A DNA stretch of 64,000 nucleotides from an uncultured Bacilli bacterium (GTDB lineage: Bacteria > Bacillota_I > Bacilli_A > RF39 > UBA660), in the NCBI GenBank assembly GCA_934086395.1, contig CAKOIE010000004.1, positions 285-64,284 of the forward strand, given 5' to 3'. Both the position numbers and the translations under genes were made by a program. Positions 4,538-64,000 of the stretch are shown one piece after another. Position 1 is the first letter of the stretch. Every line of letters begins with the position of its first letter. Under the pieces are notes generated by a model. That model saw nothing but the letters and a program-made list of their open reading frames with translations, had not been told where the DNA came from and searched no databases.

Positions 4538-4600
4538 TCAGTTGCGGAATGTTGGAGCAAGACCATTGGTACCACGGTCACTCCACACGAAGTCACCAAG
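4538..4600 (-). pseudogene. Relic 3' fragment of the TasA-N/lectin-C family (type-1 C-terminus)
   Basis: Minus-strand translation gives GDFVWSDRGTNGLAPTFRN-stop. This parallels the C-termini GDSGVIGTGNGYSAGFAPAFRIG (copy A) and GDWGYFNYSDTNGFSPAFRIA (copy B). No upstream family sequence remains. Confidence 0.55.
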
Positions 4601-5158
4601 CAAAATAACAAAACCAATAAATAAACAACCAGGCACACCTAATTTACATCGGCTTTCCTATTTCAAAAGTTGTCAAAAATCATTTTTTAACAAACTTAGA
4701 AACCAATAAATCAATTTTTTTATCATCATCTATCTCTTTATTATTTATCTTCTTTAATTTCTTATCAAGAACATCCATACAAGATTTAGAAAAAAGCAAT
4801 AATACTCTTCTAAGTAAAATGTCTTCATACCTAACAGGATTAACACTATTAGCCATAGAAACAAGTTCAGCTTGTTTACATACATATTTTTCAATAGGTA
4901 TTATATAAATATTAGTCCTACTTCTTATTTAATTTAGAAACATGCCTTAAAGTTTCCACTTGAATAACATAAGAATTATCCACATACTCTAAACCATTAG
5001 GTTTTCTTTTAAACTTAGGTTAGGTTTCCTTTTAAACTTAGGTATTGACATCTTACTATCTCTATTCTAATATAAAATATCTAATAAATTATTAGCATAC
5101 TTATATGTATTAATATAATATTTTCGATATCTAGGTAATAATAATTCATTAATTCTTA

Positions 5159-5596
5159 TTAAAATATAATATCTTTAAATATACTCTTATATAAAGAATT
5201 AACATAATTATATTTATCTATTAACTCTTTATTACATTTATTTATATATTTATGTTTTTTATATCTTCTTTTTATTCTTACACATTCATAATAATCATAC
5301 ATTCTATTAACTTGTAAATCATACATATCTAAAAATTTATTATATAAAACTTTTAAATAACTTCTAGCTAATTTAATAATTAAATTACAATATACTATAT
5401 CTTCAAAATTACTTATTTTATAATTTATTAAATAAGTAAATAGTTTATATTCTTTATCACAATAATCACTTACAGGATCTTTATATCTACTATTTTTATT
5501 ATTTTTTAAATTGACTACTAAAAATAACATTTCACATTTAATATTAAAACTGATTTTATATACATTTAGTATTTTTTTATTATATTTTTCTTTCAT
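5159..5596 (-). CDS. Hypothetical basic protein
   Basis: 145-aa ORF with GAGG about 11 nt upstream of the ATG. Extremely AT-rich, with no recognisable motif. Confidence 0.35.
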   Translation of the reverse strand: MKEKYNKKILNVYKISFNIKCEMLFLVVNLKNNKNSRYKDPVSDYCDKEYKLFTYLINYKISNFEDIVYCNLIIKLARSYLKVLYNKFLDMYDLQVNRMYDYYECVRIKRRYKKHKYINKCNKELIDKYNYVNSLYKSIFKDIIF

Positions 5597-7163: not shown

Positions 7164-7193
7164 ATTATAGGATAAATCGTCTTCCCTGGTCAA
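7164..7193 (-). promoter_or_regulatory. Family promoter (copy A): TTGACC-N18-TATAAT
   Basis: -35 at 7188-7193 and -10 at 7164-7169 (reverse complement). The position is homologous to the promoters of the other family copies. Confidence 0.5.
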
Positions 7194-39268: not shown

Positions 39269-39276
39269 TTTAAATT

Positions 39277-39619: not shown

Positions 39620-39630
39620 TTTGAAATATT

Positions 39631-39658: not shown

Positions 39659-39724
39659 GTGCTTATTTATAATTATAATAAAAGACAACCTGCCAAGGCC
39701 ATCCTTTAAACAATTATTGCTTTA

Positions 39725-40132: not shown

Positions 40133-40239
40133 TCTTTATCCACCCTATAATAAGCATATCACATCTCATTAATTATGCAATCAAAAATACTTTATTTTTT
40201 TAAATTTTTATGATATATTATTTTTGCAATTATTTATTT

Positions 40240-40316
40240 GCGCTCATAGCTCAATTGGATAGAGCGTTAGACTACGGATCTAAAGGTTAGGGGTTCGACT
40301 CCCTTTGGGCGCACCA
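40240..40316 (+). tRNA. tRNA-Arg (ACG)
   Basis: GCGCTCATAGCTCAATTGGATAGAGCG..., anticodon loop CTACGGA, CCA encoded. Confidence 0.9.
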
Positions 40317-48657: not shown

Positions 48658-49986
48658 TTAAGCAATACGGAAGGCGGGAGAAAAGCCGTTAGTATCAGAA
48701 TAGTTAAAATATCCCCAGTCACCATCGTTTCGAACACGCAAAAATTGGTCATTAAAGTTTGATGGCATAGTTCGCAATATCCATGGATAATCTATATTAT
48801 TATAATGCTTGATGGTATTTATAAAATTAGTTGTTAAAACGCCATTTGTTTTATAATAATCAAGCTGTCTAGTATTATAATAAGCAGTGTCAAATCCAGA
48901 AATTATATTATTTGAACCATTAGTATATACTTCATGAGCACTTAGCAAGTATATTTTATCTATTGATTCCCAATTGCCGTCTGTTCTTTTATTGTTCTTG
49001 TCATCGCTGCCATGACCTGATACTACTTTTGTTTTTACTATTATATTTCTTAATTCATCTGGTAATTTATTAAAGAATTCTCCATTTGCGTATGTTCTTA
49101 TTGCTGTTGCTGGCCATCCACCATTATTTGTATTTGTTAAATTCATTTGTCTTTTTTCCACAATATCAACAAATTCTAAAACAAATCCACAAGCTGTCTT
49201 TGAAAATCCTTCTTTATTACATTCATCAGGTGTTGTATTATTTGCAACTCTAACTTTATGTACTTGATTATCAATAGTTACCTCTTTTTCAGAACCAACT
49301 GCATATGTTGTTAAATAACCATCTTTAACAATATTAGCTATTTTTTCCCATGAATCAGTACTAAATGTTCCTTCATAATTAATTACTATCTTTCCAGTTA
49401 AACTTTTTCCTTTTTCACTATCTTGATTTAAACCATTATCTGGAAATTGTAGTTTTAAATTAAATGTAATTGTTTGATTTGTTGTATTTGTTTTAAACTC
49501 TCCTGTTGCTAGTTCTAGGTATCTATTTCCTTTTTTTAAAGTACCATGAGTATATCCTGTTTCTGATGCATTTCCAGGTATTGCTTGATTAGATACTCCA
49601 ACTAAATTACTCGTTATATTACTATTTGTATTTGTTCTTTTTATATAATAATGAATCATTTCATCACTAAACTCTGATACATAATCTAGTCCTACTTTAT
49701 ATGGCATAGAAAGTCCACTTGTCGTATTTGTTCCTGTTAAAGTAAATGTTTTATTTACTATAATATTATTACTAGGTTCAATATTTTTACTTGTTAATAT
49801 ATCACTTGTTCCATCAGTATAACTTATGGTCATCTTTCCTCCTGTTACTTCTACTATTGATGTACTTCCATTATTATTTGTTGATGTAAAAAAAGCATAT
49901 GTTATTCCTGAGAACATCATTAATAATATTAATAATATTCCAATCATTACATATACTTTTACTCTTTCATTCTTAACCTTATTCAT
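48658..49986 (-). CDS. Secreted protein, family copy B (type-1 C-domain)
   Basis: SipW-type signal (FSGITYAFFTSTNNNGS) and a conserved N-domain. The C-domain has GGWPATA, IYLLSAHEV and a terminal FSPAFRIA. Confidence 0.85.
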   Translation of the reverse strand: MNKVKNERVKVYVMIGILLILLMMFSGITYAFFTSTNNNGSTSIVEVTGGKMTISYTDGTSDILTSKNIEPSNNIIVNKTFTLTGTNTTSGLSMPYKVGLDYVSEFSDEMIHYYIKRTNTNSNITSNLVGVSNQAIPGNASETGYTHGTLKKGNRYLELATGEFKTNTTNQTITFNLKLQFPDNGLNQDSEKGKSLTGKIVINYEGTFSTDSWEKIANIVKDGYLTTYAVGSEKEVTIDNQVHKVRVANNTTPDECNKEGFSKTACGFVLEFVDIVEKRQMNLTNTNNGGWPATAIRTYANGEFFNKLPDELRNIIVKTKVVSGHGSDDKNNKRTDGNWESIDKIYLLSAHEVYTNGSNNIISGFDTAYYNTRQLDYYKTNGVLTTNFINTIKHYNNIDYPWILRTMPSNFNDQFLRVRNDGDWGYFNYSDTNGFSPAFRIA

Positions 49987-50009
49987 TTTATTTCACCTAA
50001 CCTAGTGAA

Positions 50010-50039
50010 ATTATATTACTAAATGTTCTTCCCCGTCAA
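50010..50039 (-). promoter_or_regulatory. Family promoter (copy B): TTGACG-N18-TATAAT
   Basis: -35 at 50034-50039 and -10 at 50010-50015 (reverse complement). Confidence 0.5.
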
Positions 50040-50114
50040 GCAAAAATTTGTTCTATTTTCTTATAATTTTTAAATTAACATACATAACTTTTAGTAAATT
50101 ATTTTATAAAGACC

Positions 50115-51692
50115 TTATTCAAGAAGGTAAGGACTACCTTCTTCACCAGTTCCACTAGCTATCAAGATATCAGATTTCAAGAAAACGGCCGGCAGAACTC
50201 CGCTGGAGCTACACGCGCTGTTGCAGTCGACAGCACCGCCCCCAAACACATAGAACACATTATCCGAGTTACTAGAGTAAGGCGACAATGTCCAATACCA
50301 ACTAGACTTTTGTAACCAATTGTCAATTTTACATTTTGTATTAGTATAATCATTTTGTTCTTTTGCTTTATCATACACTACTCCAGCTCTTAAATTTTCT
50401 CTACATTCACTATTTGTTGAGGCATATCCATAATCACTAGCATAAATTAGTCCAACCTTACCTGTCCACTCAGTAGGGCGACTATTTTGATAGGTGATTG
50501 TTCCTCTTTCTTTATTATATTGATCTAATAGAGGCAATCCATATGGTGCAGAACTTGGGTTGTTATAACTATTTCCTCCAATGTTCCATACACTTTCACT
50601 TATCATATTTTGATAATTGCTTTTTATAACTTTAGTATAATCAAATTCTCCAGTTTGGTGAAGTACTATTTTTTTCAATGTTGAATCATAATATGAATTA
50701 TACCAATTTGTCTTGTTTGCAGTTAAAGCTGTATTTAAATAATCACCATTTAATTCTTTCATCAAGTCTGCTTCTGTCCAATTATTAAATCCATAATCAT
50801 TATTTCCAGTGGCATCCCATGAATATGATCCTAAAGATTCATTTCTAACTAATTTAATCTTTCTTTCAATTTTACCTGTTGAATCTTTTACATTAAATAC
50901 GCCTATTATTCTCCATAGTTCTCCTGTGTTAGCAAACTCAACATAATTATTTGGATTAGCACCTGTATATCTTAAGTTTACATCACTTGTATTATCTATA
51001 AATAAACCACTTGTTGATACTCCATTTGTTTTAGTTTCTTTATCATATAACGCAATTAATGTATCTGTTGCTGATTCTTTATAATTTACAATTATCTTTC
51101 CAGTGAAAATTTTTCCTTTTTCACTATCTTGGTTTAAACCATTATCAGGAAATTGTAGTTTTAAATTAAATGTAATTGTTTGATTTGTTGTATTTGTTTT
51201 AAATTCTCCTGTTGCTAGTTCTAGGTATCTATTTCCTTTCTTTAATGTACCATGGGTATAGCCTGTTTCTGAGGTGTTACCTGGTATCGTTTGATTTGCT
51301 GTTCCAACTAGGTTACTTGTTACATTACTATTTGTATTTGTTCTTTTTATATAATAATGAATTTGTCCATCACTAAACTCTGATACATAATCTAGTCCTA
51401 CTTTATATGGCATTGCTAAACCACTTGTTGTATTTGTTCCAGTTAAAGTAAAAGTTTTATTAACTATAATGTCATTACTAGGCACAATATTTTTACTAGT
51501 TAACAAATCACTTGTTCCATCAGTATAACTAATGGTCATCTTACCTCCTGTTACTTCTACTATTGACGTACTTCCATTATTGTTTGTTGATGTAAAATAT
51601 GCATATGTTATTCCGCCAAATAATAAAATCATCATCGTAATTGTAGATAAGATTACAATTAATTTTACCTTGCTTTCTTTCACTTTCATCAT
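50115..51692 (-). CDS. Secreted protein, family copy C (type-2 C-domain, VR-like 3' patch)
   Basis: SipW-type signal (FGGITYAYFTSTNNNGS) and a conserved N-domain. The type-2 C-domain has ELWRIIGVF, SVWNIGGN, GLIYASDYGYAS, WYWTLSPYS and VLPAVFLKS. Confidence 0.85.
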   Translation of the reverse strand: MMKVKESKVKLIVILSTITMMILLFGGITYAYFTSTNNNGSTSIVEVTGGKMTISYTDGTSDLLTSKNIVPSNDIIVNKTFTLTGTNTTSGLAMPYKVGLDYVSEFSDGQIHYYIKRTNTNSNVTSNLVGTANQTIPGNTSETGYTHGTLKKGNRYLELATGEFKTNTTNQTITFNLKLQFPDNGLNQDSEKGKIFTGKIIVNYKESATDTLIALYDKETKTNGVSTSGLFIDNTSDVNLRYTGANPNNYVEFANTGELWRIIGVFNVKDSTGKIERKIKLVRNESLGSYSWDATGNNDYGFNNWTEADLMKELNGDYLNTALTANKTNWYNSYYDSTLKKIVLHQTGEFDYTKVIKSNYQNMISESVWNIGGNSYNNPSSAPYGLPLLDQYNKERGTITYQNSRPTEWTGKVGLIYASDYGYASTNSECRENLRAGVVYDKAKEQNDYTNTKCKIDNWLQKSSWYWTLSPYSSNSDNVFYVFGGGAVDCNSACSSSGVLPAVFLKSDILIASGTGEEGSPYLLE

Positions 51693-51711
51693 CCTTCCTT
51701 ATCATAGTCAA

Positions 51712-51741
51712 ATTATATCGCTAAAAATCCTCCCTAGTCAA
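51712..51741 (-). promoter_or_regulatory. Family promoter (copy C): TTGACT-N18-TATAAT
   Basis: -35 at 51736-51741 and -10 at 51712-51717 (reverse complement), directly after the polA stop. Confidence 0.5.
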
Positions 51742-51754
51742 GCGAAATTTTGTT

Positions 51755-54313
51755 CTATTTTGTATCATACCATGTAGAACCAAAATCTAAACTTGCTTTT
51801 AGATCTACATCTAATTTAACAATATGTTCCATGGCATCTTTTACAATTTTAGTTAATATATCTTTTTCAGATTCTAAACAATCAAATATTAATTCGTCAT
51901 GGACTTGTAATAACATCTTTGATTTTAGATTATTTTTAGTTATTTCATTATCTATTTTAATCATAGCCATTTTTAAAATATCAGCACTAGTTCCTTGGAT
52001 TGGAGTATTCATAGCTATTCTTTCTCCACTTTGTCTTATTAAATAATTTCTATTAGATAATTCATCAATATGTCTTTTACGATTAAATAATGTTCTTACA
52101 TATCCATTTTCATATGCATCTTTAACAGTTTTATCCATATATTCTTTTACTCCTGGATATAATTCATTAAATTTCTCAATTAATTCTTTGGCTTCTTTTG
52201 GAGAAATTTGTAAATTTTCACTTAATCCAAAACTACTTATACCATAAACAATTCCAAATACGACTGCTTTAGCTTTACTTCTTTGTAACGTGGTTACTTC
52301 ATCTAGTGGAACTCCAAAAATATCACTTGCTACTTGTTTATGGATATCTATATTATTATTAAAAGCATTTATTAATTCTTTAGATTTTGATAAATGTGCT
52401 AGTACTCTTAATTCAATTTGAGAATAATCTGTGCTTAAAAATAAGTCATATTCAGGTAAAAATGCTTTTTTTACTAATTTACCATCTTCTTTTTTAGAAG
52501 GAATATTTTGCATATTTGGTTCTAAACTTGATAATCTTCCTGTTCTAGTTAATGCTTGTTTATAGATAGTATGAATTTTATTATCATCTTTAATAAATAC
52601 TTTTAATCCCTCTAAATAAGTACTATTTAATTTAGTTAAATTACGATAATCAATAATTAATTTTAATTCTGGTATTGTTTTAGATAGTTTTAATATTGTA
52701 GATGCATCAGTATTATACCTATTTGTTTTATTCTTTTTATGTGTGTATGGTAAATTCATATGTTCAAATAATACTACTCCTAACTGGATGGGACTATTAA
52801 TATTAAACTCTTCTCCACATACAGAATATATTTTTTTTGATATATCTTCTAAATTCTTATCCATATCTTTTTGAAGAGATGATAATATGTCTTTATCACA
52901 AATTATTCCATTTAATTCCATTTTAGCTAGAACTGTTATTAAAGGCATTTCAATATTTATAAATAAATCTAACATTTCTTCTTGTTGTAATTCATTTATA
53001 AATCTTTCTTTTTGATTATAAATATATTTTGCTTTTAATGTTACTTCATTTTCTAAATTAGTTTTATCTTTAATTACATCATTATAAAATGAAACATATA
53101 TTCCTTCTTTATTCATAAGTACAGCAAGATCTTCTTTAATTTGATAATTAAGTAGATAGGCAGCTATCATAAGATCAAAAGAAGTATTTAAATGTATGTT
53201 ATTAAGTAAATTTATATTCTTTTTTAAATCATAAGTATATTTATCATTATCTTTTAAGTATTCTAAACATTCAGTAATCATTTCGGGTTTTATAAAGAAA
53301 GAATTAATACCGTCATATAAACCCATTCCTAGTATTTCAGAATTATGATAATTTTCATTATTACATTCTATATAATAAGATATATCATTATTTTTATTAA
53401 TTTCATTTAAATTTTCTAATACTTTATAATTTGATATAGTATTTTCTTGTTTGTAATCCATTTTTTTAAGATATGAAAAAAATTCTAGTTCCTTGTATAT
53501 TTCAATTAATTTATCTTTATTAGGTCCTAAATATTTACAATCTTTAAGAGTTTCTTTAATTGGGGCGTTTAAACATATTGTACATATATCTTTACAAAAA
53601 TAAGCACTAGTTATATCTTTTAATAATTTATCATGAGTTGCTCCTTTTATTGAATCAATATTATCATATATTTCTTCTATCGTATTATATTGTTGTAATA
53701 GTTTAAGTGCTGTTTTTTCACCTATTCCTTTTACTCCTGGGACATTGTCTGATGGATCCCCCATTAAAGCTTTTAAATCTATCATTCTAATTGGTTCAAT
53801 ACCATAATCTTCAATAAATTTTTCTTTAGTATATCTTATATAGTCTTTACTTTTTAATAATTTTACTTCTACTTCTTCATTAATTAATTGTAATAAATCT
53901 TTATCAGAAGATATAATAGTTGCTACAAAGTCTTTATCATCTAAAGCCATTTTACTTAATGTACCAATTATATCATCTGCTTCATAATTAGATAATTCAA
54001 TATGTTTTATTCCCATAGCATCTAGTAATTCTTTTGATTTAGTTAATTGAATTAATAGTTCATTTGGGGTTGCACTTCTTCCAGCTTTATATTCTTTATA
54101 TTTTTCATGTCTAAAGTTTTTACCAATATCATAAGCTACTGCTATATAAGTAGGTTTTTCTTCTTCAATAATTTTATTTATCATATTATTAAAACCATAT
54201 AATGCATTAGTAGGATAATTTTTACTATTAACCATTAAGTTTCCAACTGCTGCTGTTGCATAATAACTTCTAAATATTAAGTTATTTCCATCAATTAGTA
54301 TTATTTTTTCCAT
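51755..54313 (-). CDS. polA: DNA polymerase I
   Basis: 852 aa. It has a 5'-nuclease domain (ILIDGNNLIFRSYYA) and a C-terminal family A polymerase domain (motif A DYSQIELRVLAH, motif B RSKAKAVVFGIVYGIS, motif C QVHDELIF). Confidence 0.97.
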   Translation of the reverse strand: MEKIILIDGNNLIFRSYYATAAVGNLMVNSKNYPTNALYGFNNMINKIIEEEKPTYIAVAYDIGKNFRHEKYKEYKAGRSATPNELLIQLTKSKELLDAMGIKHIELSNYEADDIIGTLSKMALDDKDFVATIISSDKDLLQLINEEVEVKLLKSKDYIRYTKEKFIEDYGIEPIRMIDLKALMGDPSDNVPGVKGIGEKTALKLLQQYNTIEEIYDNIDSIKGATHDKLLKDITSAYFCKDICTICLNAPIKETLKDCKYLGPNKDKLIEIYKELEFFSYLKKMDYKQENTISNYKVLENLNEINKNNDISYYIECNNENYHNSEILGMGLYDGINSFFIKPEMITECLEYLKDNDKYTYDLKKNINLLNNIHLNTSFDLMIAAYLLNYQIKEDLAVLMNKEGIYVSFYNDVIKDKTNLENEVTLKAKYIYNQKERFINELQQEEMLDLFINIEMPLITVLAKMELNGIICDKDILSSLQKDMDKNLEDISKKIYSVCGEEFNINSPIQLGVVLFEHMNLPYTHKKNKTNRYNTDASTILKLSKTIPELKLIIDYRNLTKLNSTYLEGLKVFIKDDNKIHTIYKQALTRTGRLSSLEPNMQNIPSKKEDGKLVKKAFLPEYDLFLSTDYSQIELRVLAHLSKSKELINAFNNNIDIHKQVASDIFGVPLDEVTTLQRSKAKAVVFGIVYGISSFGLSENLQISPKEAKELIEKFNELYPGVKEYMDKTVKDAYENGYVRTLFNRKRHIDELSNRNYLIRQSGERIAMNTPIQGTSADILKMAMIKIDNEITKNNLKSKMLLQVHDELIFDCLESEKDILTKIVKDAMEHIVKLDVDLKASLDFGSTWYDTK

Positions 54314-54432
54314 GTTATCATCTCCAAGTATATTCTATAATAAATATGATAAAAAAACTATTGTTAAAGAATAATAGATTGATTTTTTTAATAAAATATC
54401 GTAATATATCTAATACGTTGTGAGGATATTAT

Positions 54433-55902
54433 ATGTGTGATTATAGAGAAAAATATAAAAATTTATATATGAGAATATTAAATAAATTAAATTTAATTAG
54501 TAAAGAAAACGATGATGTTAGTACATGTTATGAAGCTTTAGATAGAATAGATAAAAGTATATGTTCATGGCTTCAATGTAATTTAGATTATAATGGAATT
54601 ATGGTTGTTTATAATAAGGGAATAGTTCTATTAAATGATTTAGATAAAAGAATTGAAAATAAATATGAATATAGTATTAGATATAAGAATGTTAATTATT
54701 TAATTGATTTAAGTGGGGCTATTATTAGATGTTTAAGTAAGATAGATTCTAATTTAGATGGTTGTTCTAAAGATTTTATAAATGATATTTATAAAATAGC
54801 TTATCAAGTTATTAAATTGGAGTTTTATTATTATAATAGTTCTATTGTTTGGAATTATTGTAAAGAGAATGATAAACATAAATTACATATTTCTAGATAT
54901 ATTATGAAAGATGTTAAGAAATATAATTATAATATTTTAAATAAAGATAAATTTATTAATGAAGAGTTTATAAGAATTATTAGTAAAAAGGAATGTAAGG
55001 TTTTAGAAGATGATTTATTTAAATTATTAGATGGATTAAAAAAGAAATTAGAAGATATAATTAAAGAAATAAGTAAAAATAGATGTGATATAGTAAAAAG
55101 TACTAATGAGATTGAAAAGATTAAATTAAAGATTGAAGAATATAAAAGATATAAGGTTAAATGTTTTATTAAGGCTTTAGGTTCTTGGTTATTAACTATT
55201 AGTATTTTAGGTGGAGCTATATATGGTTGTTCTAGGGGAAAAAAGTATCATAATTATATAGAAAAATATTCTTCTATAGATGATTCATTTAGTAAGATAG
55301 ATAATGGATATAAGAGAAATACAGATTTGTCACATACTTATATTGTAGTTTATGGAGATGCTAGATTTAGTGATAATAAATATGATAGAGAGGCTTATAT
55401 TTTTAATATTAATGATATTAAATCGGATGATATTAATGATTATTTTGGAGTTGATTTATCTTGTTATAGTTATGAAGTAGATCATATTGTGGAAGATAAT
55501 CCAGTTAGTACTAAAGAATATACTGAAATATATAAACAAAAAATTGATAAAAATAATTATAATTATGATTTTTCAATTAATGATATGTTTATATATATGA
55601 TTTGTTTTATTTTATTGACTTTAACTTTAGAAAAATTATCTAGTTTAGTTTATAGAAAATCTAAATTTGGAATAATATCTCCTTGGATTAATTTATATAA
55701 TGATTTAAAGGGTAATGGATACGAATCATATGAAGATATGTATAAAAGATTATCTAGTGATAATTATGGGCTTAAAAAAGATATTAATGAGTTATTAAAG
55801 GATAAAGAATTTATATTAAGTTTATATAATGAGATTATAAATAATAAAGAATTTAATTATAAAATAAATGGAAAGAGTAAAAGAAAAAGAATCAATGAGT
55901 GA
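54433..55902 (+). CDS. Hypothetical membrane protein with a coiled-coil segment
   Basis: 489-aa ORF with TM segments near residues 250-270 and 385-405. No family recognised. Confidence 0.5.
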   Translation: MCDYREKYKNLYMRILNKLNLISKENDDVSTCYEALDRIDKSICSWLQCNLDYNGIMVVYNKGIVLLNDLDKRIENKYEYSIRYKNVNYLIDLSGAIIRCLSKIDSNLDGCSKDFINDIYKIAYQVIKLEFYYYNSSIVWNYCKENDKHKLHISRYIMKDVKKYNYNILNKDKFINEEFIRIISKKECKVLEDDLFKLLDGLKKKLEDIIKEISKNRCDIVKSTNEIEKIKLKIEEYKRYKVKCFIKALGSWLLTISILGGAIYGCSRGKKYHNYIEKYSSIDDSFSKIDNGYKRNTDLSHTYIVVYGDARFSDNKYDREAYIFNINDIKSDDINDYFGVDLSCYSYEVDHIVEDNPVSTKEYTEIYKQKIDKNNYNYDFSINDMFIYMICFILLTLTLEKLSSLVYRKSKFGIISPWINLYNDLKGNGYESYEDMYKRLSSDNYGLKKDINELLKDKEFILSLYNEIINNKEFNYKINGKSKRKRINE

Positions 55903-55911
55903 TTCTTTTTT

Positions 55912-57489
55912 CTATAAGCTTAATTTATAAGGGGTATCTTTTTCACCTGTTCCGGATGTGAATAAGATATTTGATTTTAAATAAAGAGAGGGGAAAACAT
56001 TATATGAGTAAGACGCATGATTGTAATCAACAGAACCATTCCAAACACAAAATATATGTTTCCAACTATTAGAGTAAGGCGACAATGTCCAATAATATGT
56101 CGTCGACTTATCTAACCAATTATCTAATTTACATTTCGAATTTGCATTATCATTTCGGTTATTTAAAGAATCATGCACTACTCCAGCTCTTAAATTTTCT
56201 CTACATTCACTATTTGTTGAGGCATATCCATAATCACTTGGATAAATTAGTCCAACCTTACCTGTCCACTTGGTAGGGCGACTATTTTGATAGGTTATCG
56301 TTCCTCTTTCTTTATTATATTGATCTAATAGAGGCAATCCATAAGGTGCAGAGCTTGGGTTACTATAAGTATTTCCACCTATGTTCCATACACTTTCACT
56401 TATCATATTTTGATAATTTTGTTTTATAGTTTTGGTATAGTCAAAATCTCCTTCTTTTCTTTGAACTGGCTTACTAGCTGTTGAATCATAATAACTATTG
56501 TACCATTTTGTATTAGATGTTAAAGTTGTATTTAAATAATCACCATTTATTTCATTCATTAAATCCGCTTCAGTCCAATCATTTATTCCCCAATCATTAT
56601 TTCCAGTTGCATCCCATGAATATGATCCTAATGATTCATCTCTAACTAATTTAATCTTTCTTTCTATTTTACCTGTTGAATCTTTTACATTAAATACCCC
56701 AATTATTCTCCATAGTTCTCCGGTGTTAGCAAACTCAACATAATTCTTTGGATTAGCTCCAGTGTATCTTAAGTTTACATCACTTGTATTATCTATAAAT
56801 AATCCACTTGTTGATACTTCATTTGTTTTTGTTTCTTTATCATATAACGCCATTAATGTATCTGTTGCTGATTCTTCGTAATTTATAGCTATCTTTCCTG
56901 ATAAACTTTTTCCTTTTTCACTATCTTGACTTACTCCGGTATCAGGAAATTGCATTTTTAAATTAAATGCAATTGTTTGATTTGTTGTATTTGTTTTAAA
57001 CTCTCCTGTTGCTAGTTCTAGATATCTATTACCTTTTTTAAGTGTTCCATGAGTATATCCTGTTTCTGAGGTGTTACCTGATATTGTTTGATTTGCTGTT
57101 CCAACTAGGTTACTTGATACATTATCATTTGTACTTGTTCTTTTTATATAATAATGAATCATTCCATCACTAAACTCTGATACATAATCTAGGCCTACTT
57201 TATATGGCATTGCTAAACCATTTGTCGTATTTGTTCCTGTTAAAGTAAATGTTTTATTAACTAAGATATCATTACTTGGCACAATATCTTTACTAGTTAA
57301 CAAATCACTTGTTCCATCAGTATAACTAATGGTCATCTTTCCTCCTGTTACTTCTACTATTGATGTACTTCCATTATTATTTGTTGATGTAAAAAAAGCA
57401 TATGTTATACCAGAGAACATCATTAATAATATTAATAATGTTCCAATCATTACATACACTTTTACTCTTTCATTCTTAGCATTATTCAT
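55912..57489 (-). CDS. Secreted protein, family copy D (type-2 C-domain)
   Basis: Same architecture as copy C. The C-terminal tail is SNILFTSGTGEKDTPYKLSL. Ends in TAG. Confidence 0.85.
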   Translation of the reverse strand: MNNAKNERVKVYVMIGTLLILLMMFSGITYAFFTSTNNNGSTSIVEVTGGKMTISYTDGTSDLLTSKDIVPSNDILVNKTFTLTGTNTTNGLAMPYKVGLDYVSEFSDGMIHYYIKRTSTNDNVSSNLVGTANQTISGNTSETGYTHGTLKKGNRYLELATGEFKTNTTNQTIAFNLKMQFPDTGVSQDSEKGKSLSGKIAINYEESATDTLMALYDKETKTNEVSTSGLFIDNTSDVNLRYTGANPKNYVEFANTGELWRIIGVFNVKDSTGKIERKIKLVRDESLGSYSWDATGNNDWGINDWTEADLMNEINGDYLNTTLTSNTKWYNSYYDSTASKPVQRKEGDFDYTKTIKQNYQNMISESVWNIGGNTYSNPSSAPYGLPLLDQYNKERGTITYQNSRPTKWTGKVGLIYPSDYGYASTNSECRENLRAGVVHDSLNNRNDNANSKCKLDNWLDKSTTYYWTLSPYSNSWKHIFCVWNGSVDYNHASYSYNVFPSLYLKSNILFTSGTGEKDTPYKLSL

Positions 57490-57514
57490 TTTATTTCACC
57501 TAACCTATAGTGAA

Positions 57515-57542
57515 ATTATATTACTAAAAGCCCCCCCGTCAA
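57515..57542 (-). promoter_or_regulatory. Family promoter (copy D): TTGACG-N16-TATAAT with a G7 tract in the spacer
   Basis: -35 at 57537-57542 and -10 at 57515-57520. The C7 run on the plus strand is at 57531-57537. Confidence 0.55.
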
Positions 57543-57635
57543 GCGAAAACTTGTTCTTGTTTTTTAATTACATAAATTTTTAAAATAATATATATTTGCA
57601 AAATAATTTACATCATTTACATATCGTTACTAAAT

Positions 57636-58889
57636 TTAATATAAATCATAGCATACTTTAAAAGCAGGTCTCATTTTTTCTATTTGTTCATTATTAATTC
57701 CATATTTTTTTGCTAACTTTTCCCAATTATTTTTTACAATATGTATAATTTCATCAGCATAGTTTTTAGCAATATCCTGAGAAATATCAAAATAATTTGC
57801 ACTTGAAATAGCTAAATTTATAGAAATACTATTATCAAAACTATCAATATTTAATGAAAGCATATCACCATAAGGAACAGGATTAACATCATATAGAGGA
57901 GATAAAATCCATCCTTTATTAGTTAATATAAACCCATGATTTCGTAAATGATCATCAGTATTCGAAACAGCCATATTAAAAATAATTCGTTTAAATAGTT
58001 CTATAAGATCCTCTTTCGGATTAGCACCATAGGCTTTGATAAAATCTACAATATCAATATAGCTTGTACCATCATCAGTTCCTGCACCATCATTTTTTCC
58101 AAGCATTGTCATAGCTGAAGCAAAATGTATTCTTTTTTTACCATCTCGATCAAAACGTTTAACCAAGAAAGTACTACCATCTTTTGAAAAATTTTCTAAT
58201 TTAGATTCAGGAACATTTAATTTACACATTTTTGCTAAATCATGCACTACTTTTTCCCATGCACCTACATTATAATCATCATTTTTAGAAGGAAACTTTG
58301 CAATCCATAAATTACCATGCTCATCTTCTACTGTAGCTTTTGGTCTAGCTCCTCCAAGAGAAGAACCTGGTTTTAGCAATTGATTAAGCCATTTATCATT
58401 CAATAAATTTCCATCTTTTTCAAATTGGCGTGATGCTTCCTCTAAAGTACGAAGAGTTGTCCAAGGAGGAGCAGCATTTTCAAAATCATCTGACAAAAAT
58501 GAAGCATTTTCATCTTCTTTAAAACGAAGAGCACCAATACGTGTTTGATCATATACTCCAAGCAAAAAATCACTATCATATAAATTATTAGGTTTCCTAT
58601 TTTCATTATTTGCTTTAATAACCTCACGTCTTTTCATAAGAACTCTTCCCCAACGATCTGGAGATGCATCAGCAAACATTCCAAAAATATTTTTAGTAGA
58701 ATATTGTCTTCCGGAAAACATGGAAATTTCAGGATCTAAATAAAATGAAAATTTTGATTGTTTTAGCCAATCATCATCATACGCAAAAGAATAATGTTCA
58801 ACACCACGTAAAGTATTAACATATAAAATTCCTAATTTTTTTGGCTCTATTGAACTGAAATTTTCATATACTATTATTTTTCGTTCCAT
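57636..58889 (-). CDS. hipA: HipA-family type II toxin kinase
   Basis: 417 aa. It has a HipA N-terminal coupling region and a C-terminal kinase-like domain (GGARPKATV, FNMAVSNTDDHLRNHGF). Confidence 0.85.
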   Translation of the reverse strand: MERKIIVYENFSSIEPKKLGILYVNTLRGVEHYSFAYDDDWLKQSKFSFYLDPEISMFSGRQYSTKNIFGMFADASPDRWGRVLMKRREVIKANNENRKPNNLYDSDFLLGVYDQTRIGALRFKEDENASFLSDDFENAAPPWTTLRTLEEASRQFEKDGNLLNDKWLNQLLKPGSSLGGARPKATVEDEHGNLWIAKFPSKNDDYNVGAWEKVVHDLAKMCKLNVPESKLENFSKDGSTFLVKRFDRDGKKRIHFASAMTMLGKNDGAGTDDGTSYIDIVDFIKAYGANPKEDLIELFKRIIFNMAVSNTDDHLRNHGFILTNKGWILSPLYDVNPVPYGDMLSLNIDSFDNSISINLAISSANYFDISQDIAKNYADEIIHIVKNNWEKLAKKYGINNEQIEKMRPAFKVCYDLY

Positions 58890-58891
58890 TA

Positions 58892-59206
58892 TTATTCTCC
58901 TTTAGGTGCTCGTTTCCTAACATGCATATTTAAATCCTGAAGTTTTCTTCCAAATTCATCATCCTTAGCAACAAGTAACAAGTCTTTATCTAAATTATTA
59001 AGAGAATGCAAGACATTAGCATAAATACCAATGGCAACAGATGGACTACCTTTTTCTACATTCCACAAAGTAGCACGACTTATTCCAGCTCTTTCAGCAA
59101 CTAATTTAACAGATAATTGTCTACGTAATCTAGCTAATTTAATTTGTTCTCCCATTATCACAAGAATTTCTTCAGTACTAGGTAAAACATTAACAGATTT
59201 CTTCAT
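58892..59206 (-). CDS. HipB-like XRE-family antitoxin
   Basis: HTH (IKLARLRRQLSVKLVAERAGISRATLWNVEKG). The stop lies 2 nt before the hipA ATG. The ATG at 59206 is preceded by GAGGTGA. Confidence 0.8.
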   Translation of the reverse strand: MKKSVNVLPSTEEILVIMGEQIKLARLRRQLSVKLVAERAGISRATLWNVEKGSPSVAIGIYANVLHSLNNLDKDLLLVAKDDEFGRKLQDLNMHVRKRAPKGE

Positions 59207-59275
59207 ATATGTCACCTCATAGCATCTATAATTATAGACTAAAGTAACAATAATGTCAATGTTTATAGACATTAT

Positions 59276-60767
59276 GTTAATCTTTTTTTAAAATGTCACC
59301 TTATCATTAATAGAAATGTCACCAATAATGATTTATAATATTTCTTTGGGAAGGTGATATTTTTATTATGCATAATAAACCATATGCATTAAAACTTGTT
59401 CAAGACAAAATAAATGGTTTAAATAATTATTCTTATTCTCAGATTAGTTCTCTTACTGGATTTACTAAAAGACATTTAATTAGGTTATCTCAAAAACTAA
59501 ACAAAAAGGATATTGATTCTATTTTAGTTCATGGCCTAACAAATAAACCTTCTAATAATTCACCATCCGACAAAGAAATTGAATTAATTAAGAACTTTAA
59601 GAATAAATATCCAGTTATTAGTATAACACAATTTCAAGATATTTATCATGAAGATGTTATTTGGAATCCTAATATGACTAAAATAGTAAAAGAGAACAAT
59701 CTTAAAGTAAGAAGTTATTCTTTTTATGAATCCTTGTATGAAAAGTTTCAATGGATAAAGCCTATAAAACATAGATGTTTTAATAAAGATTATGATAGTC
59801 ATCCTTTAAGAGAGCCTTCTCCACAAAGAGGTATTCTAATTATGATTGATGGTACTCCTCATGATTGGTTTCAAAATGGAAGAAAATCATCTTTACATTT
59901 AGCTATTGATGATGCCACAGGTGAAGCTTTATGTGGATGGTTTATGCCTACTGAATGTCTAGAAGGTTATGTTCATATGTTAGAAATATTAGTTACAAAA
60001 TATGGTATTCCAGAAAACATATACTGTGATAAACATACTATTTTAATAAGCCCCATCGATGGTAATCTAACTAATTTTGGTCATATGTGTGAAGATTTAG
60101 GTATCAATATAATTGCTGCTAATACACCTCAAGCTAAAGGAAAAGTAGAAAAATGGAATAACACTATTCAAAATAGATTAATAAATGATATTAAGAGATA
60201 TGGTATTAAATCTATTGATGAATTGAATATATTTTTTAATGATTTTTATTGTAATTATCTTAATGAAAAATATGCTTATGAGCCAAAAGAAAATGAAACA
60301 GCTTTTGTTTCATTAGATAGTACTGATTTATCTAATATTCTATGCATAAGAGATAAAAGAACAATACTTAGCGGAAATATGTTTTCCTGGAAAAATAATT
60401 ATTATCAAATATTGGAACAAGATAATTCTATAAAGCTAATTTATAAAGGTACTGAGATACATGTATTTGAAAATGTATTAACCAGAAAAGTTAAGGTTAA
60501 ATACTACAATATATTTTATGAAACTAAAAAAATCGAAGGTCATAGACAAGATCCAGAAAAAAGAGAACAAATGAGAATAGATAATCAAAAACAACTTGAA
60601 CAAGTTTTAAAAGAAAGAGATGAAAGATTAAAAGCAAGGGCGAACAAAGTGAGTTCATAATACCCTTGCTTTTCAGATTTCATCATTTATAATTTTTATT
60701 CAAACAAAGTTCACCTTTGTTTGCTATCTGTAATTATAAATTGGTGACATTTTAACTAATGTTTAAC
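59276..60767 (+). mobile_element. 1492-bp insertion sequence (rve-type DDE transposase, ISNCY/IS1202-like) with a 17-bp target site duplication
   Basis: 25-bp imperfect terminal inverted repeats (59276-59300 vs 60743-60767, 21/25 matches, both beginning GTTAA and ending TTAAAATGTCACC). Flanked by perfect direct repeats ATGTTTATAGACATTAT at 59259-59275 and 60768-60784. Confidence 0.85.
59368..60660 (+). CDS. DDE (rve/integrase-core) transposase
   Basis: N-terminal HTH region. Catalytic core MIDGTPHDWF...HLAIDDATGEALCGWF...IYCDKHT...ANTPQAKGKVEKWNNTIQNRL. Confidence 0.85.
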   Translation: MHNKPYALKLVQDKINGLNNYSYSQISSLTGFTKRHLIRLSQKLNKKDIDSILVHGLTNKPSNNSPSDKEIELIKNFKNKYPVISITQFQDIYHEDVIWNPNMTKIVKENNLKVRSYSFYESLYEKFQWIKPIKHRCFNKDYDSHPLREPSPQRGILIMIDGTPHDWFQNGRKSSLHLAIDDATGEALCGWFMPTECLEGYVHMLEILVTKYGIPENIYCDKHTILISPIDGNLTNFGHMCEDLGINIIAANTPQAKGKVEKWNNTIQNRLINDIKRYGIKSIDELNIFFNDFYCNYLNEKYAYEPKENETAFVSLDSTDLSNILCIRDKRTILSGNMFSWKNNYYQILEQDNSIKLIYKGTEIHVFENVLTRKVKVKYYNIFYETKKIEGHRQDPEKREQMRIDNQKQLEQVLKERDERLKARANKVSS

Positions 60768-60811
60768 ATGTTTATAGACATTATTAAATAAACCTAGTCA
60801 TTATCCAAGCA

Positions 60812-62389
60812 TTATCTAAAACGGTAAGGACTAACCTCTTCACCAGTTCCACTAGCTATCAAGATATCAGATTTCAAGAAAACGGCCGGCAAAACCCCGT
60901 TAGAGTTAAACGCGCCGCCGCTGCTGACGGCACCGCCCCCATCCACATCAAACACATAAGTCGAGTAACCAGAGTAAGGCGACAATGTCCAATACCAACT
61001 ATACTTTTGTAACCAATTGTCTAATTTACATTTTATATTAGTATAATCAGTTTGTTCTTTTGTTGAATCATATACTATTCCAGCTCTTAAATTTTCTCTA
61101 CATTCACTATTTGTTGATGCATATCCATAATCGCTGGCATAAATTAGACCAACCTTACCTGTCCACTCAGTAGGGAGACTATTTTGATAGGTGATTGTTC
61201 CTCTTTCTTTATTGTATTGTTCTAATAGAGGCAATCCATATGGTGCAGAGCTTGGGTTGTTATAACTATTTCCTCCTATGTTCCATACACTTTCACTTAT
61301 CATATTTTGATAAGTGCTTTTTATGACGTTTGTATAATTAAATTCTCCAGTTTGGCGAAGTACTGGTTTCTTAGTTGTTGAATCAGAATATGAATTATAC
61401 CAATTATTCTTATTTGCAGTTAATGCTGTATTTAAATAATCTCCATTTAATTCATTTTTTAAGTCTGCTTCTGTCCAATTATTAAATCCATAATCATTAT
61501 TTCCAGTGGCATCCCATGAAAAATTACCTAATGATTCATTTCTAACTAATTTTATCTTTCTTTCAATTTTACCAGTTGAATCTTTTACATTAAATACTCC
61601 AACTATTCTCCATAGTTCTCCGGTGTTAGCAAATTCAACATAATTATTTGGATTAGCTCCTGTATATCTTAAGTTTACATCACTTGTATTATCTATAAAT
61701 AATCCACTTGTTGATACTCCATTTGTTTTTGTTTCACTATCAAATTTAGCAATTAATGTATCTGTTGCTGATTCTTCGTAATTTATAGCTATCTTTCCTG
61801 ATAAACTTTTTCCTTTTTCACTATCTTGGTTTAAACCATTATCAGTAAATTGTAATTTTAAATTAAATGTAATTGTTTGATTTGTTGTACTTGTTTTAAA
61901 CTCTCCTGTTGCTAGTTCTAAATATCTATTTCCTTTTTTTAATGTTCCATGAGTATATCCTGTTTCTGAGGTGTTACCTGGTATTGTTTGATTAGATACT
62001 CCAACTAGGTCACTTGTTACATTACTATTTGTACTTGTTCTTTTTATATAATAATGGATCATTCCATCACTAAACTCTGATATATAATCTAGTCCTACTT
62101 TATATGGCATTGCTAAACCACTTGTTGTATTTGTTCCTGTTAATGTAAATGTTTTATTAACTATAATGTCATTACTAGGCACAATATTTTTACTTGTTAA
62201 CAAATCACTTGTTCCATCAGTATAACTTATGGTCATCTTTCCTCCTGTTACCTCTACTATTGATGTACTTCCATTATTATTTGTTGATGTAAAAAAAGCA
62301 TATGTTATACCAGAGAACATCATTAATAATATTAATAATGTTCCAATCATTACATACACTTTTACTCTTTCATTCTTAGCATTATTCAT
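60812..62389 (-). CDS. Secreted protein, family copy E (type-2 C-domain, VR-like 3' patch)
   Basis: The 5' region and upstream sequence are nearly identical to copy D. The 3' end is C-like (VLPAVFLKSDILIASGTGEE). Confidence 0.85.
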   Translation of the reverse strand: MNNAKNERVKVYVMIGTLLILLMMFSGITYAFFTSTNNNGSTSIVEVTGGKMTISYTDGTSDLLTSKNIVPSNDIIVNKTFTLTGTNTTSGLAMPYKVGLDYISEFSDGMIHYYIKRTSTNSNVTSDLVGVSNQTIPGNTSETGYTHGTLKKGNRYLELATGEFKTSTTNQTITFNLKLQFTDNGLNQDSEKGKSLSGKIAINYEESATDTLIAKFDSETKTNGVSTSGLFIDNTSDVNLRYTGANPNNYVEFANTGELWRIVGVFNVKDSTGKIERKIKLVRNESLGNFSWDATGNNDYGFNNWTEADLKNELNGDYLNTALTANKNNWYNSYSDSTTKKPVLRQTGEFNYTNVIKSTYQNMISESVWNIGGNSYNNPSSAPYGLPLLEQYNKERGTITYQNSLPTEWTGKVGLIYASDYGYASTNSECRENLRAGIVYDSTKEQTDYTNIKCKLDNWLQKYSWYWTLSPYSGYSTYVFDVDGGGAVSSGGAFNSNGVLPAVFLKSDILIASGTGEEVSPYRFR

Positions 62390-62414
62390 TTTATTTCACC
62401 TAACCTATAGTGAA

Positions 62415-62442
62415 ATTATATTACTAAAAGCCCCCCCGCCAA
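62415..62442 (-). promoter_or_regulatory. Family promoter (copy E): TTGGCG-N16-TATAAT with a G7 tract
   Basis: -35 at 62437-62442 and -10 at 62415-62420. The C7 run on the plus strand is at 62431-62437. Confidence 0.5.
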
Positions 62443-62581
62443 GCGAAATTTTGTTCTTATTTTTTGAATTATAAATTTTCAATTTATTATATATGTGTTT
62501 TGCAAATTAATTTATACAAAGAAATTTATTTTCAACATTATCAAAATTTATTTATACAAAGACACAGTTAATTGAACGGGC

Positions 62582-64000
62582 TCATAAACTTAATTTATAA
62601 GGACTATCTTTTTCACCTGTTCCAGATGTGAATAAGATATTGGATTTTAAATAAATAGAGGGGAAAATTCCTAAAGAACGATAACACGTTGTACTATCAG
62701 CAACACCACTACTATTTATTCCAAAAATATCATAAGAATAGTTAGAAAAAGGTGTTATAGTCCAAAACCAATTTGATTTAAACAACCAATTATTTTTCTT
62801 ACATTTTCCATTTGAATAATCCCATTTTTCGTTTTCTTTGTCATATGTTAAACCAGATCTTAAATTTTCTCTACATTCACTATTTGTTGAGGCATATCCA
62901 TAATCACTTGCATAAATTAGTCCAACTTTACCTGTCCATGTGGTAGGGCAACTATTTTGATAGGTAATTATTCCCCTTTCTTTATTATATTGATCTAAGA
63001 GAGGTAATCCATATGGTGGAGTATTTGGGTTGTTATAACTATTTCCTCCAACGTTCCATACACTTTCACTTATCATATTTTGATAATTATTTTTTATAAC
63101 TTTTGTATAATCAAATACTCCAGTTTGGCGAAGTGATGGTTTCTTTGTTGTTGAATCATAATATGAATTATACCAATTATTCTTATTTGCAGTTAAAGCT
63201 GTATTTAAATAATCACCATTTAATTCATTTTTTAAGTCTGCTTCTGTCCAATTATTTATTCCACGATACTCATTTGTTATAGAATTTAACTTAGCATCCC
63301 ATGAAAATTCTCCTAATGATTCATCTCTAACTAATTTTATCTTTCTTTCAATTTTACCAGTTGAATCTTTTATATTAAATACTCCAACTATTCTCCATAG
63401 TTCTCCGGTGTTAGCAAACTCAACATAATTATTTGGATTAGCTCCTGTATATCTTAAATTTACATCACTTGTGTTATCTATAAATAATCCACTTATTGAT
63501 ACTTCATTTGTTTTTGTTTCTTTATCATATAAGGCCATTAATGTATCTGTTGCTGATTCTTCATAATTAATTACTATCTTTCCTGTTAAATTTTTTCCTT
63601 TTTCACTATCTTGATTTTCATTATTATCTGGAAATTGTAATTTTAAATTAAATGTAATTGTTTGATTTGTTGTATTTGTTTTAAACTCTCCTGTTGCTAG
63701 TTCTAGGTATCTATTTCCCTTTTTTAATGTTCCATGAGTATATCCTGTTTCTGAGGTGTTACCTGGTATTGTTTGATTTGCTGTTCCAACTAAATTACTT
63801 GTTATATTACCATTAGTATTAGTTCTTTTTATATAATAATGAATCATTCCATCACTAAACTCTGATATATAATCTAGGCCTACTTTATATGGCATAGCTA
63901 AACCACTTGTCGTATTTGTTCCTGTTAATGTGAATGTTTTATTAACTATAATGTCATTACTAGGCACTATATTTTTACTTGTTAATATATTACTTGTTCC
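62582..64000 (-). CDS. Secreted protein, family copy F (type-2 C-domain), 5' end beyond the window
   Basis: The reading frame stays open to position 64000, and the sequence there still aligns to the conserved N-domain (…TSKNIVPS…). Ends in TGA. Confidence 0.8.
   Translation of the reverse strand, partial: GTSNILTSKNIVPSNDIIVNKTFTLTGTNTTSGLAMPYKVGLDYISEFSDGMIHYYIKRTNTNGNITSNLVGTANQTIPGNTSETGYTHGTLKKGNRYLELATGEFKTNTTNQTITFNLKLQFPDNNENQDSEKGKNLTGKIVINYEESATDTLMALYDKETKTNEVSISGLFIDNTSDVNLRYTGANPNNYVEFANTGELWRIVGVFNIKDSTGKIERKIKLVRDESLGEFSWDAKLNSITNEYRGINNWTEADLKNELNGDYLNTALTANKNNWYNSYYDSTTKKPSLRQTGVFDYTKVIKNNYQNMISESVWNVGGNSYNNPNTPPYGLPLLDQYNKERGIITYQNSCPTTWTGKVGLIYASDYGYASTNSECRENLRSGLTYDKENEKWDYSNGKCKKNNWLFKSNWFWTITPFSNYSYDIFGINSSGVADSTTCYRSLGIFPSIYLKSNILFTSGTGEKDSPYKLSL

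Follow-up and report, generated by a model that had tools for sequence, protein, structure and literature searches.

A dispersed family of putatively exported proteins with exchangeable heads and retroelement-type variable regions in an uncultured Bacilli bacterium

A modular gene family on the minus strand

The window analysed here is a 64-kb stretch of contig CAKOIE010000004.1 (assembly GCA_934086395.1, positions 285 to 64,284) from an uncultured Bacilli bacterium. It carries six paralogous genes, A to F, for modular proteins with a plausible SipW-type signal and exchangeable C-terminal heads, and our results indicate with high confidence that the family is a target class of diversity-generating retroelements (DGRs). 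A previous interpretation made from the letters of the window alone (the sequence-only reading) had described TasA-like fibre proteins with swappable lectin-like domains. All six open reading frames (ORFs) are present where they had been reported, on the minus strand, with F continuing beyond the window end (Table 1). Protein alignment likewise reveals the shared N-terminal module (N-module), given earlier as about 205 aa, and its fusion at one breakpoint to two types of C-terminal module (C-module). More specifically, the N-module of A–F is about 206 aa long and consists of a K/N-rich start, a hydrophobic helix of about 20 aa, the motif G-I/S-T-Y/F-A-Y/F-F-T and a beta-rich domain (N-domain); it ends at ..QDSEKGK-x3-GK-x3-NYE. 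Past the NYE junction A and B continue into a type-1 C-module and C–F into a type-2 one, and these two types are unrelated to each other.

Nucleotide identities across the modules are mosaic and incongruent between the N- and C-modules. The N-module of B is 87–92% identical to those of C, D and E and 72% to that of A, while its C-module is 66% identical to that of A and about 49% to those of C, D and E. D and E share 94% identity in the N-module and 80% in the head. Homologues of the family in metagenome protein collections number in the thousands: A is 99% identical to P0121, which occurs in four contigs, C is 100% identical to P0004 and E 99.4% to P0001; look-up of the exact sequence of protein D gave no database record. 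In the genome scan the carriers are uncultured ‘Bacilli’ or ‘Tenericutes’ metagenome-assembled genomes (MAGs) from guts, those of Hadza included. A single MAG has at least 14 dispersed copies.

The type-1 heads match DUF6273 (PF19789) well above the gathering score of 23.5 bits (A 59.6 bits, E=4.7e-16; B 53.1 bits). DUF6273 has been described as a C-type-lectin-like domain and as a DGR target in phages (PMC10743442). Among the type-2 heads the same profile stays below the gathering score (E 22.7 bits, C 15.7 bits) or gives no match (D and F), and the weak matches fall on the variable region described below (E=1e-4). When the two head types are compared by hhalign, the variable-region stretch alone aligns (E=0.029).

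That heads are exchangeable between paralogues and strains is supported by the mosaic identities and by two further findings. Relatives of the family carry other C-terminal types: PF12810, DUF285/PARCEL, BspA-LRR, Listeria-Bacteroides repeats and DUF6273, the last singly or as two copies. Over E together with its promoter, strain L058 and the window share 97.9% identity, and in L058 the gene upstream of E ends in a type-1 head (...PWWLREADYSNNVSFLNV...APAFRIG*), whereas the window has the type-2 gene F at this place; homology between the two resumes directly after the stop codon of the L058 gene. The earlier picture of a modular family with swappable heads is supported. Protein P0163 has a tandem pair of A-type heads (64% identical, half of A aligned) on a canonical type IV prepilin N-terminus, and such prepilin-borne heads support a role in filament display.

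Variable regions and retroelement cassettes

What the sequence-only reading missed is that the heads contain DGR variable regions, which are the key to their variability; it also missed the nature of a supposed relic downstream of A and a G7 tract in the promoters. DGR cassettes were found in sister genomes, and they were reached by two routes: locus L053 through P0401, a relative in the N-domain only, and locus L002 through a blind self-similarity scan for adenine bias. In L053 and L015 the order is a type-2 gene, a 100-nt template repeat of its 3' region encoding SPYSGNSNNVFNVNGDGAVNNNNAYNSNSVFPA, a bAvd-like gene and an RVT_1 reverse transcriptase. All differences between variable region and template lie at template adenines (8/8 in L053 and 14/14 in L015, with 0/74 at other sites in each). 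These two loci come from the same species in different samples; their template and reverse transcriptase are identical and their variable regions differ, which is the signature of an active DGR. The L002 cassette, which is unrelated to that of L053 and L015, consists of a type-1 gene, two accessory ORFs (11584-12126 and 12142-12690), a template repeat about 60 nt past the second of these and a 362-aa reverse transcriptase; 24 of its 25 differences between template and variable region are at adenines.

Two observations concern the type-2 genes linked to these cassettes. The gene is intact in L015 (10001-11569, 522 aa) and split in L053 (9635-11203, ORFs of 202 aa and 313 aa), which may reflect either a natural knock-out or a fault of the assembly. 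DGR-adjacent type-2 genes have a GC-rich element, GGTGCCGCGAAGCGAGACGTGCCTTTGGCGGGTAGGGA (L015 ~11570-11610, L053 ~11205-11245, L022 ~4810-4850), immediately behind their stop codon; this may be a cis element of the DGR, and it is missing after C and E of the window.

In the window itself, C and E have variable regions with a GC content of about 50–63%, against about 27% in the gene bodies. Compared with the L053 template, C differs at 13/26 adenine sites and 8/74 non-adenine sites (p=9e-5), and E at 14/26 and 7/74, respectively (p=9e-6). The comparison of C with E gives the same picture, with differences at 16/26 template-adenine sites and 6/74 others (p=1.4e-7). C, E, L015, L053 and L022 all have the same 24 nt behind the variable region, though the genes are about 77% identical overall; in D this segment has diverged. 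With moderate confidence we therefore regard C and E as genes that are, or recently were, DGR targets in this genome; they look like competent or recently used ones. D and F have no GC peak, and their mismatches to the template are spread over all bases. In B the 3' GC maximum is 45% and the variable-region scan did not flag it. The variable regions of D and F are fossil, and in our best explanation that of B, largely decayed, is grouped with them.

The 3' segment of A resembles a variable region as well: relative to the L002 template, 24/41 adenine sites differ as compared to 17/74 non-adenine sites (p=1.6e-4). A is followed by a degenerate DGR. Directly downstream, the first L002 accessory gene has an intact homologue, for which no Pfam match was found, and the second is represented by a broken remnant (Table 1). 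The segment 4538-4600 had been described as a relic paralogue. It exists and it resembles the 3' end of a type-1 gene; its position, about 66 nt downstream of the accessory remnant (compare about 60 nt for the L002 template repeat), is the reason why we read it as a template-repeat remnant and not as a relic paralogue. No reverse transcriptase was found after this remnant by tblastn, and local alignment of gene A with its downstream region gave low-complexity noise only. A has a diversified variable region beside a decayed DGR. DGR targeting is thus a feature of sister genomes, and its adenine signature is present in C, E and A of the window.

Table 1. Coordinates of the paralogues, DGR-related segments and promoters in the 64-kb window
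Feature	Coordinates	Strand	Remarks
Paralogue A	5772..7136	-	454 aa; SipW-type signal (plausible), N-module and type-1 (DUF6273) head
Paralogue B	48658..49986	-	442 aa; C–F-like N-module and type-1 (DUF6273) head; variable region largely decayed
Paralogue C	50115..51692	-	525 aa; N-module and type-2 head
Paralogue D	55912..57489	-	525 aa; type-2 head; variable region decayed
Paralogue E	60812..62389	-	525 aa; N-module and type-2 head
Paralogue F	62582..64000	-	Type-2 head; variable region decayed; N-terminus lost at window end
C variable region	50187..50286	-	SPYSSNSDNVFYVFGGGAVDCNSACSSSGVLPA; GC peak (50–60%), adenine bias against L053 template
E variable region	60884..60983	-	SPYSGYSTYVFDVDGGGAVSSGGAFNSNGVLPA; GC peak (55–63%), adenine bias against L053 template
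Candidate initiation of mutagenic homing (IMH) segment, retrohoming mark, 3' of C variable region	50137..50186	-	First 24 nt conserved
A variable-region-like 3' segment	5783..5903	-	WWLRGATSNFND...GFAPAF; GC up to 55%
DGR accessory-gene homologue, avd position	5159..5596	-	Intact, next gene past A; 71% identical (aa) to L002 11584-12126
Second DGR accessory gene, broken remnant	4665..5051	-	Two tblastn fragments, 63% and 61% to L002 12142-12690, middle lost
Template-repeat remnant, truncated	4538..4600	-	Encodes GDFVWSDRGTNGLAPTFRN*; shortened WLR...GLAPTFRN*
A promoter	7164..7193	-	TTGACC-N18-TATAAT, G tract interrupted
B promoter	50009..50041	-	TTGACG-N18-TATAAT, G tract interrupted (GGGGAAG)
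C promoter	51711..51743	-	TTGACT-N18-TATAAT, G tract interrupted; begins just past polA stop codon
D promoter	57514..57544	-	TTGACG, G7 (57531-57537), 16-nt spacer, TATAAT
E promoter	62414..62444	-	TTGGCG -35 (TTGACG in L058), G7 (62431-62437), TATAAT

Scaffold, alternatives and known systems

Regarding the N-module, the signal motif G-x-T-F/Y-A-Y/F-F-T is visible in the alignment of the family proteins. With the TIGR04088 signal-peptide profile (cut-off 19 bits) A, C and D score 12.9–15.0 bits and B, E and F give no match. A profile built from five N-modules retrieved 500 clusters (50% identity) among 1.8 billion representative proteins, and the best 150 of these clusters include about 50 stand-alone proteins (185–280 aa) and about 62 with C-terminal extensions of 50–585 aa. 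Nearly all relatives have the signal motif in the form ..G-A-T-F-A-Y-F-T-A, and the hydrophobic helix is unusually conserved in the stand-alone ones. Among 131 N-domain relatives 12 match TIGR04088 at E<=0.01 (best 5e-4); P0477, the single relative checked against the cut-off, exceeds it with 20.4 bits. For PF12389 (gathering score 22.5 bits) the corresponding number is 19/131, and the two relatives checked, P0477 (26.8 bits) and P0359 (26.2 bits), are both above the cut-off; the six window proteins gave zero matches at E<=1. The proposed SipW-type signal is therefore plausible: the motif is present and the profile finds it in relatives, with A, C and D below threshold and B, E and F without a match.

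The AlphaFold2 (AF2) monomer model predicts the N-domain as an all-beta sandwich of about 12 strands (predicted local distance difference test score 85), in which the N-terminal ~13 residues of the mature protein are of low confidence. In an hhalign comparison the family profile aligns with TasA at E=0.003 and 10% probability over TasA residues 8–73, i.e. the signal peptide and the first three strands (the TasA sequence was checked against 8AUR). As this alignment puts the TasA cleavage site A27|A28 at ..T-Y-A|F-F-T of the family, cleavage after ..T-Y-A is predicted. N-domain profiles made from 5 and 53 sequences retrieved from the PDB chains only chance matches to HipT (E=0.02) and weak ones to archaeal pilins; Foldseek searches of PDB and BFVD with the full-length model returned generic jelly-rolls and no convincing relative. 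Type IV pilin identity for the N-domain was rejected, since the matches to 8tib and 6nav (E=0.3–0.7) come from the hydrophobic helix.

Genomic context ties the family most strongly to the TasA system, namely through stand-alone homologues adjoining a SipW-type peptidase. In L031 two tandem stand-alone homologues of the N-module are followed by a TIGR02228 SipW-type peptidase (SGSMEP...THRV; 103 bits). This locus is 83% identical at the nucleotide level to window positions 34368-37707 (~3.4 kb), for which reason it probably comes from a congener of the window host. L054 repeats the operon, with stand-alone homologues at 5372-5980 and 6001-6705 and a SipW-type peptidase. The N-module is likely to be a beta-sandwich scaffold of SipW-cognate type within the TasA/BsaA class, which is broad and highly diverged; we hold SipW-dependent export with moderate confidence and stop short of placing the module in TasA proper. 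A divergent stand-alone gene for a SipW-signal beta-sandwich protein of 205 aa was also seen in sister MAGs (L002 4850-5467 and L006 ~7070). It lies between NlpC/P60-like and LCP-family genes (named by eye), about 5 kb upstream of a family member, and its product is a possible major subunit or anchor partner.

We consider it fairly probable that the family consists of exported proteins with SipW-type signals, in which a scaffold of TasA/BsaA-like arrangement carries a DGR-diversified ligand-binding head, and that together they provide a fast-evolving binding repertoire. Each protein would have three parts. The first would be a SipW-type signal peptide ending at ..G-I/S-T-Y/F-A|F/Y-F-T. The second would be a beta-sandwich scaffold of about 170 aa, homologous to the stand-alone proteins of 185–280 aa encoded in tandem beside a SipW-type signal peptidase, an arrangement that would correspond to that of TasA/BsaA-type matrix-fibre subunits. 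The third would be a head of the C-type-lectin/DUF6273 kind, in which the last ~33–40 codons of the binding surface form the DGR variable region. The reverse transcriptase of the DGR would copy the template repeat, which is rich in Asn codons, making errors specifically at adenines, and the resulting cDNA would replace the variable region, so that the binding site is rewritten and the scaffold stays constant. A single cassette could serve several paralogues, provided that they retain the conserved stretch on the 3' side of the variable region. Head types may be swapped among paralogues and strains by recombination at the ..NYE junction, and the fact that every gene is transcribed on its own, from a strong promoter, may add a further layer of diversity. 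We infer for this genome current DGR activity, processing by SipW, assembly into fibres or display on the surface, and an adhesin function.

Several results weigh against this interpretation. As for the heads, tblastn with the reverse transcriptases of both sister cassettes, blastn and a self-blast adenine-bias scan revealed neither a reverse transcriptase nor a type-2 template repeat in the window, and no Avd or other template repeat beyond the decayed cassette beside A; the contig is about 64.6 kb long, and current DGR activity in this genome is therefore unproven. Three samples have one and the same variable region in A, which gives no sign of current diversification. C and E carry 8 and 7 non-adenine differences, respectively, to the L053 template, which is foreign to this genome. 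The type-2 head has low confidence in the AF2 model, and because of this its lectin fold is a prediction. If the DGR is extinct here, the family would be a decaying one whose paralogues diverge by ordinary mutation, duplication and gene conversion. The invariance of A, the degenerate DGR beside it that has no reverse transcriptase, the decayed variable regions of B, D and F and the window without reverse transcriptase or type-2 template all fit this explanation, which we nevertheless find somewhat unlikely. In a genome of 25% GC, C and E keep GC-rich variable regions, an exact 3' flank and differences focused on template adenines; drift would erase these features, as it did in D and F. Moreover, not one of the ORFs is broken, their promoters are near-consensus, and sister genomes possess demonstrably active cassettes.

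As for the scaffold, TasA (5OF1, 8AUR) lies outside the top 50 PDB matches in a Foldseek search with the N-domain model, and the matches obtained from PDB and BFVD are generic carbohydrate-binding modules and jelly-rolls with a template modelling (TM) score of about 0.3. The PF12389 matches of the relatives span profile positions 3–78 of 196, which correspond to the signal peptide and first strands, and PF12389-positive relatives gave no match among mature PDB chains. Together with the missing PF12389 match in the window proteins and the 10% hhalign probability, these results do not bear out the TasA-like N-domain of the sequence-only reading. A scan for the motif G/S-S-M-x-P over the window plus the 30 related loci L001–L030 (593 kb in all) detected no SipW-type gene, the sole peptidase being a LepB-type enzyme in L018.

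The proteins might instead be membrane-anchored monomeric receptors, with an uncleaved signal anchor or cleavage by a LepB-type enzyme, in which the beta-sandwich is a stalk for the DGR-diversified head and no fibre is formed. We regard this as rather unlikely. The result of the peptidase scan, the TasA fold that is not demonstrated and the unusual conservation of the helix among stand-alone relatives are in its favour. Note that T-Y-A is also acceptable to type-I signal peptidase, and that cellular DGR targets are often monomeric surface proteins. Against it, the signal motif is of the SipW-cognate type, the closest stand-alone homologues form a tandem in the probable congener that is immediately followed by a SipW-type peptidase, and the same heads are borne by a pilin-type N-terminus in P0163. 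Fibre formation by these proteins is a proposal that we make with low to moderate confidence. The full scenario, in which SipW-dependent TasA-type donor-strand fibres of Gram-positive gut bacteria bear lectin heads on their subunits or tips and are varied by a DGR acting in trans on several paralogues, by recombination at the junction and by on/off or level switching of each of 6–15 paralogues through poly-G slippage, seems to us quite unlikely. An origin as phage receptor-binding proteins, i.e. DGR targets like prophage tail fibres, is highly improbable: it is mainly in phage DGR targets that DUF6273 heads are known, and most gut DGRs are phage-borne, but the surroundings of the genes are polA, a dehydrogenase gene, hipBA and germination genes, and phage structural genes are missing there. 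The genes also encode secretion signals, are preceded by individual promoters of housekeeping type and reach at least 14 dispersed copies per genome, and a viral fold search gave only weak generic matches.

The nearest known system to exported proteins with DGR-diversified heads is that of the Bacteroides type V pilus tip adhesins BfrT, BthT and BunT, which are diversified by DGRs in the human gut (PMC11601372). Both combine an N-terminal pilin or scaffold with a C-terminal C-type-lectin head (predicted for type 2 here) and a DGR with Avd and reverse transcriptase, which in our case are found in sister genomes. Unlike the Bacteroides genes, which stand at the ends of pilus operons and encode a type V pilin, those described here are dispersed single-gene units in a Gram-positive spore-former and encode a SipW-signal beta-sandwich; moreover, the paralogues are many and have at least two head types, and the window lacks a reverse transcriptase. 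The TasA/CalY/BsaA subunits of biofilm fibres form a family, reported to be very divergent and multi-paralogous, that is exported through SipW (PF12389; PMC9674648, PMC11580942). With these our proteins share the SipW-type signal motif, a beta-sandwich of ~170–200 aa and the stand-alone relatives in tandem by a SipW-type peptidase. They differ from them in that the window proteins stay under the PF12389 and TIGR04088 thresholds, with TasA outside the Foldseek top 50, and in their lectin-like C-terminal heads of 240–320 aa, which are undescribed for TasA-type proteins in the literature searched. The third related group are the DUF6273/C-type-lectin variable proteins of phage DGRs, such as tentaclins and Faecalibacterium prophage targets (PMC10743442). 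Common to these, to Mtd/TvpA-type proteins and to our family are a DUF6273 head (type 1 here) with a C-terminal variable region, an Asn-rich template repeat and adenine-specific substitutions; in contrast to the phage targets, the proteins in question are cellular and probably secreted, fused to a SipW-type scaffold and encoded by a chromosomal multigene family, and the match of type 2 to DUF6273 is marginal. No paper found in our literature search mentions both DGRs and TasA. What is new here is that DGR variable proteins occur on a new Gram-positive scaffold, probably of filament type, and have multiplied there to a multigene family that recombines.

The human gut is where DGRs are densest, and few of their cellular targets are understood, the Bacteroides pilus tips being the best-studied. 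If our interpretation is true, there is a Gram-positive and probably filament-linked class of DGR targets with a large repertoire of paralogues in small-genome uncultured Bacilli common in Hadza guts. It would also mean that the TasA/BsaA-like SipW-cognate world extends to fusions with ligand-binding heads, and that such scaffolds could be adhesive organelles and not matrix alone. Should the donor-strand fibre version be correct, it would be a Gram-positive counterpart to the DGR-diversified type V pilus tips of Bacteroides. Putatively active, decaying and fossil variable regions side by side in 64 kb would offer a natural series on the recruitment and loss of DGR targets.

Promoters, host and neighbouring genes

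Each paralogue has its own promoter of the form TTGAC-N16-18-TATAAT, an untranslated region (UTR) estimated at about 20 nt and an AGGTGA ribosome-binding site. The pattern GCTTGRC-N17-19-TATAATT occurs 4 times in the window as compared to 0.02 expected, and A has a variant of it; the individual conserved promoters and 5' UTRs reported earlier are thus real. The spacer contains a G tract placed right behind the -35 TTGAC, which in D and E is G7. Of 32 G/C runs of at least 6 in the window and 30 related loci (593 kb, 25% GC), 31 are tracts of family promoters (two G6, twenty-five G7 and four G8), and the remaining one lies in a tRNA-Gln gene (39519-39524). The same G-tract cassette was found in 15 further metagenome contigs. 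With G7 the spacer is 16 nt long and with G8 it is 17 nt, while A, B and C have spacers of 18 nt.

Homopolymer tracts are known from phase-variable promoters, poly-A in vlp of Mycoplasma hyorhinis and poly-G/C in porA and opc of Neisseria. The promoters described here are similar in that a homopolymer is placed in the spacer between -35 and -10 across a surface-protein family, where the tract length sets 15, 16 or 17 nt. They are different in that the orthologous loci compared show no polymorphism of tract length and 25/31 tracts are exactly G7. No length difference was seen between the orthologues in D/L057, E/L058 and L044/L049, which all read G7 in consensus assemblies, and slippage is for this reason unproven; lengths from G5 to G8 vary solely among paralogues or non-orthologous loci. 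The pair L038/L039 (G7 and G6) was rejected as an orthologous length variant, since they share the 119-nt promoter cassette alone. With low to moderate confidence we propose the conserved poly-G tract as a candidate site of slipped-strand phase variation; the cassette is a testable candidate of this kind in a Firmicute.

Many related loci have an inverted copy of the -35 region farther upstream (for CGCTTGACGG, about 50 nt before the -35 element; for CCGTCAAGCGAACATTT versus AAATGTTCGCTTGACGG, about 25–30 nt upstream), which makes an inverted repeat of ~17 bp around an AT-rich spacer (L001 ~9690-9745, L008, L010, L014, L018–L020, L023, L030, L040–L042, L045–L047 and L050–L052). Its possible roles are those of operator, recombination site and divergent promoter; the window copies do not have it.

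The GC content of the window is 25.6%. Because GerA/GerAC germination proteins, YkuD and a Peptidase_M23 protein are encoded in it, the host is taken to be a walled spore-former; a wall-less host, which the label ‘Tenericutes’ of related MAGs would imply, was rejected on the same grounds. The interleaving of the paralogues with core genes, hipBA and an insertion sequence noted earlier is evident from their neighbours, which are polA, a short-chain dehydrogenase gene, hipBA (57636-59272, including HipA) and a gene for a weak rve-type transposase of 430 aa (59368-60660) directly downstream of E. Other accessory or defence-type genes near the paralogues are a split DDE transposase (234-1424), Abi_2 (1740-2630), a truncated-looking LysR regulator (2970-3578) and Fic (10331-11377). 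Between polA and D, a 489-aa ORF (54433-55902, plus strand) is kept in strains L057 and L059; it has no Pfam match and its predicted membrane segments are near residues 240–265 and 390–410.

A gene for a DarT-like ADP-ribosyltransferase of single-stranded DNA (18537-19109, minus strand; PF14487, E=6e-18) immediately precedes the gene of a 1240-aa DEAD/Helicase_C protein (14802-18524, minus strand), and the two may form a toxin-antitoxin or defence pair with an unusual partner. The window also contains two divergent tRNA clusters with 12 tRNA genes (38403-40316) and a further tRNA-Gln gene at 14318-14393.

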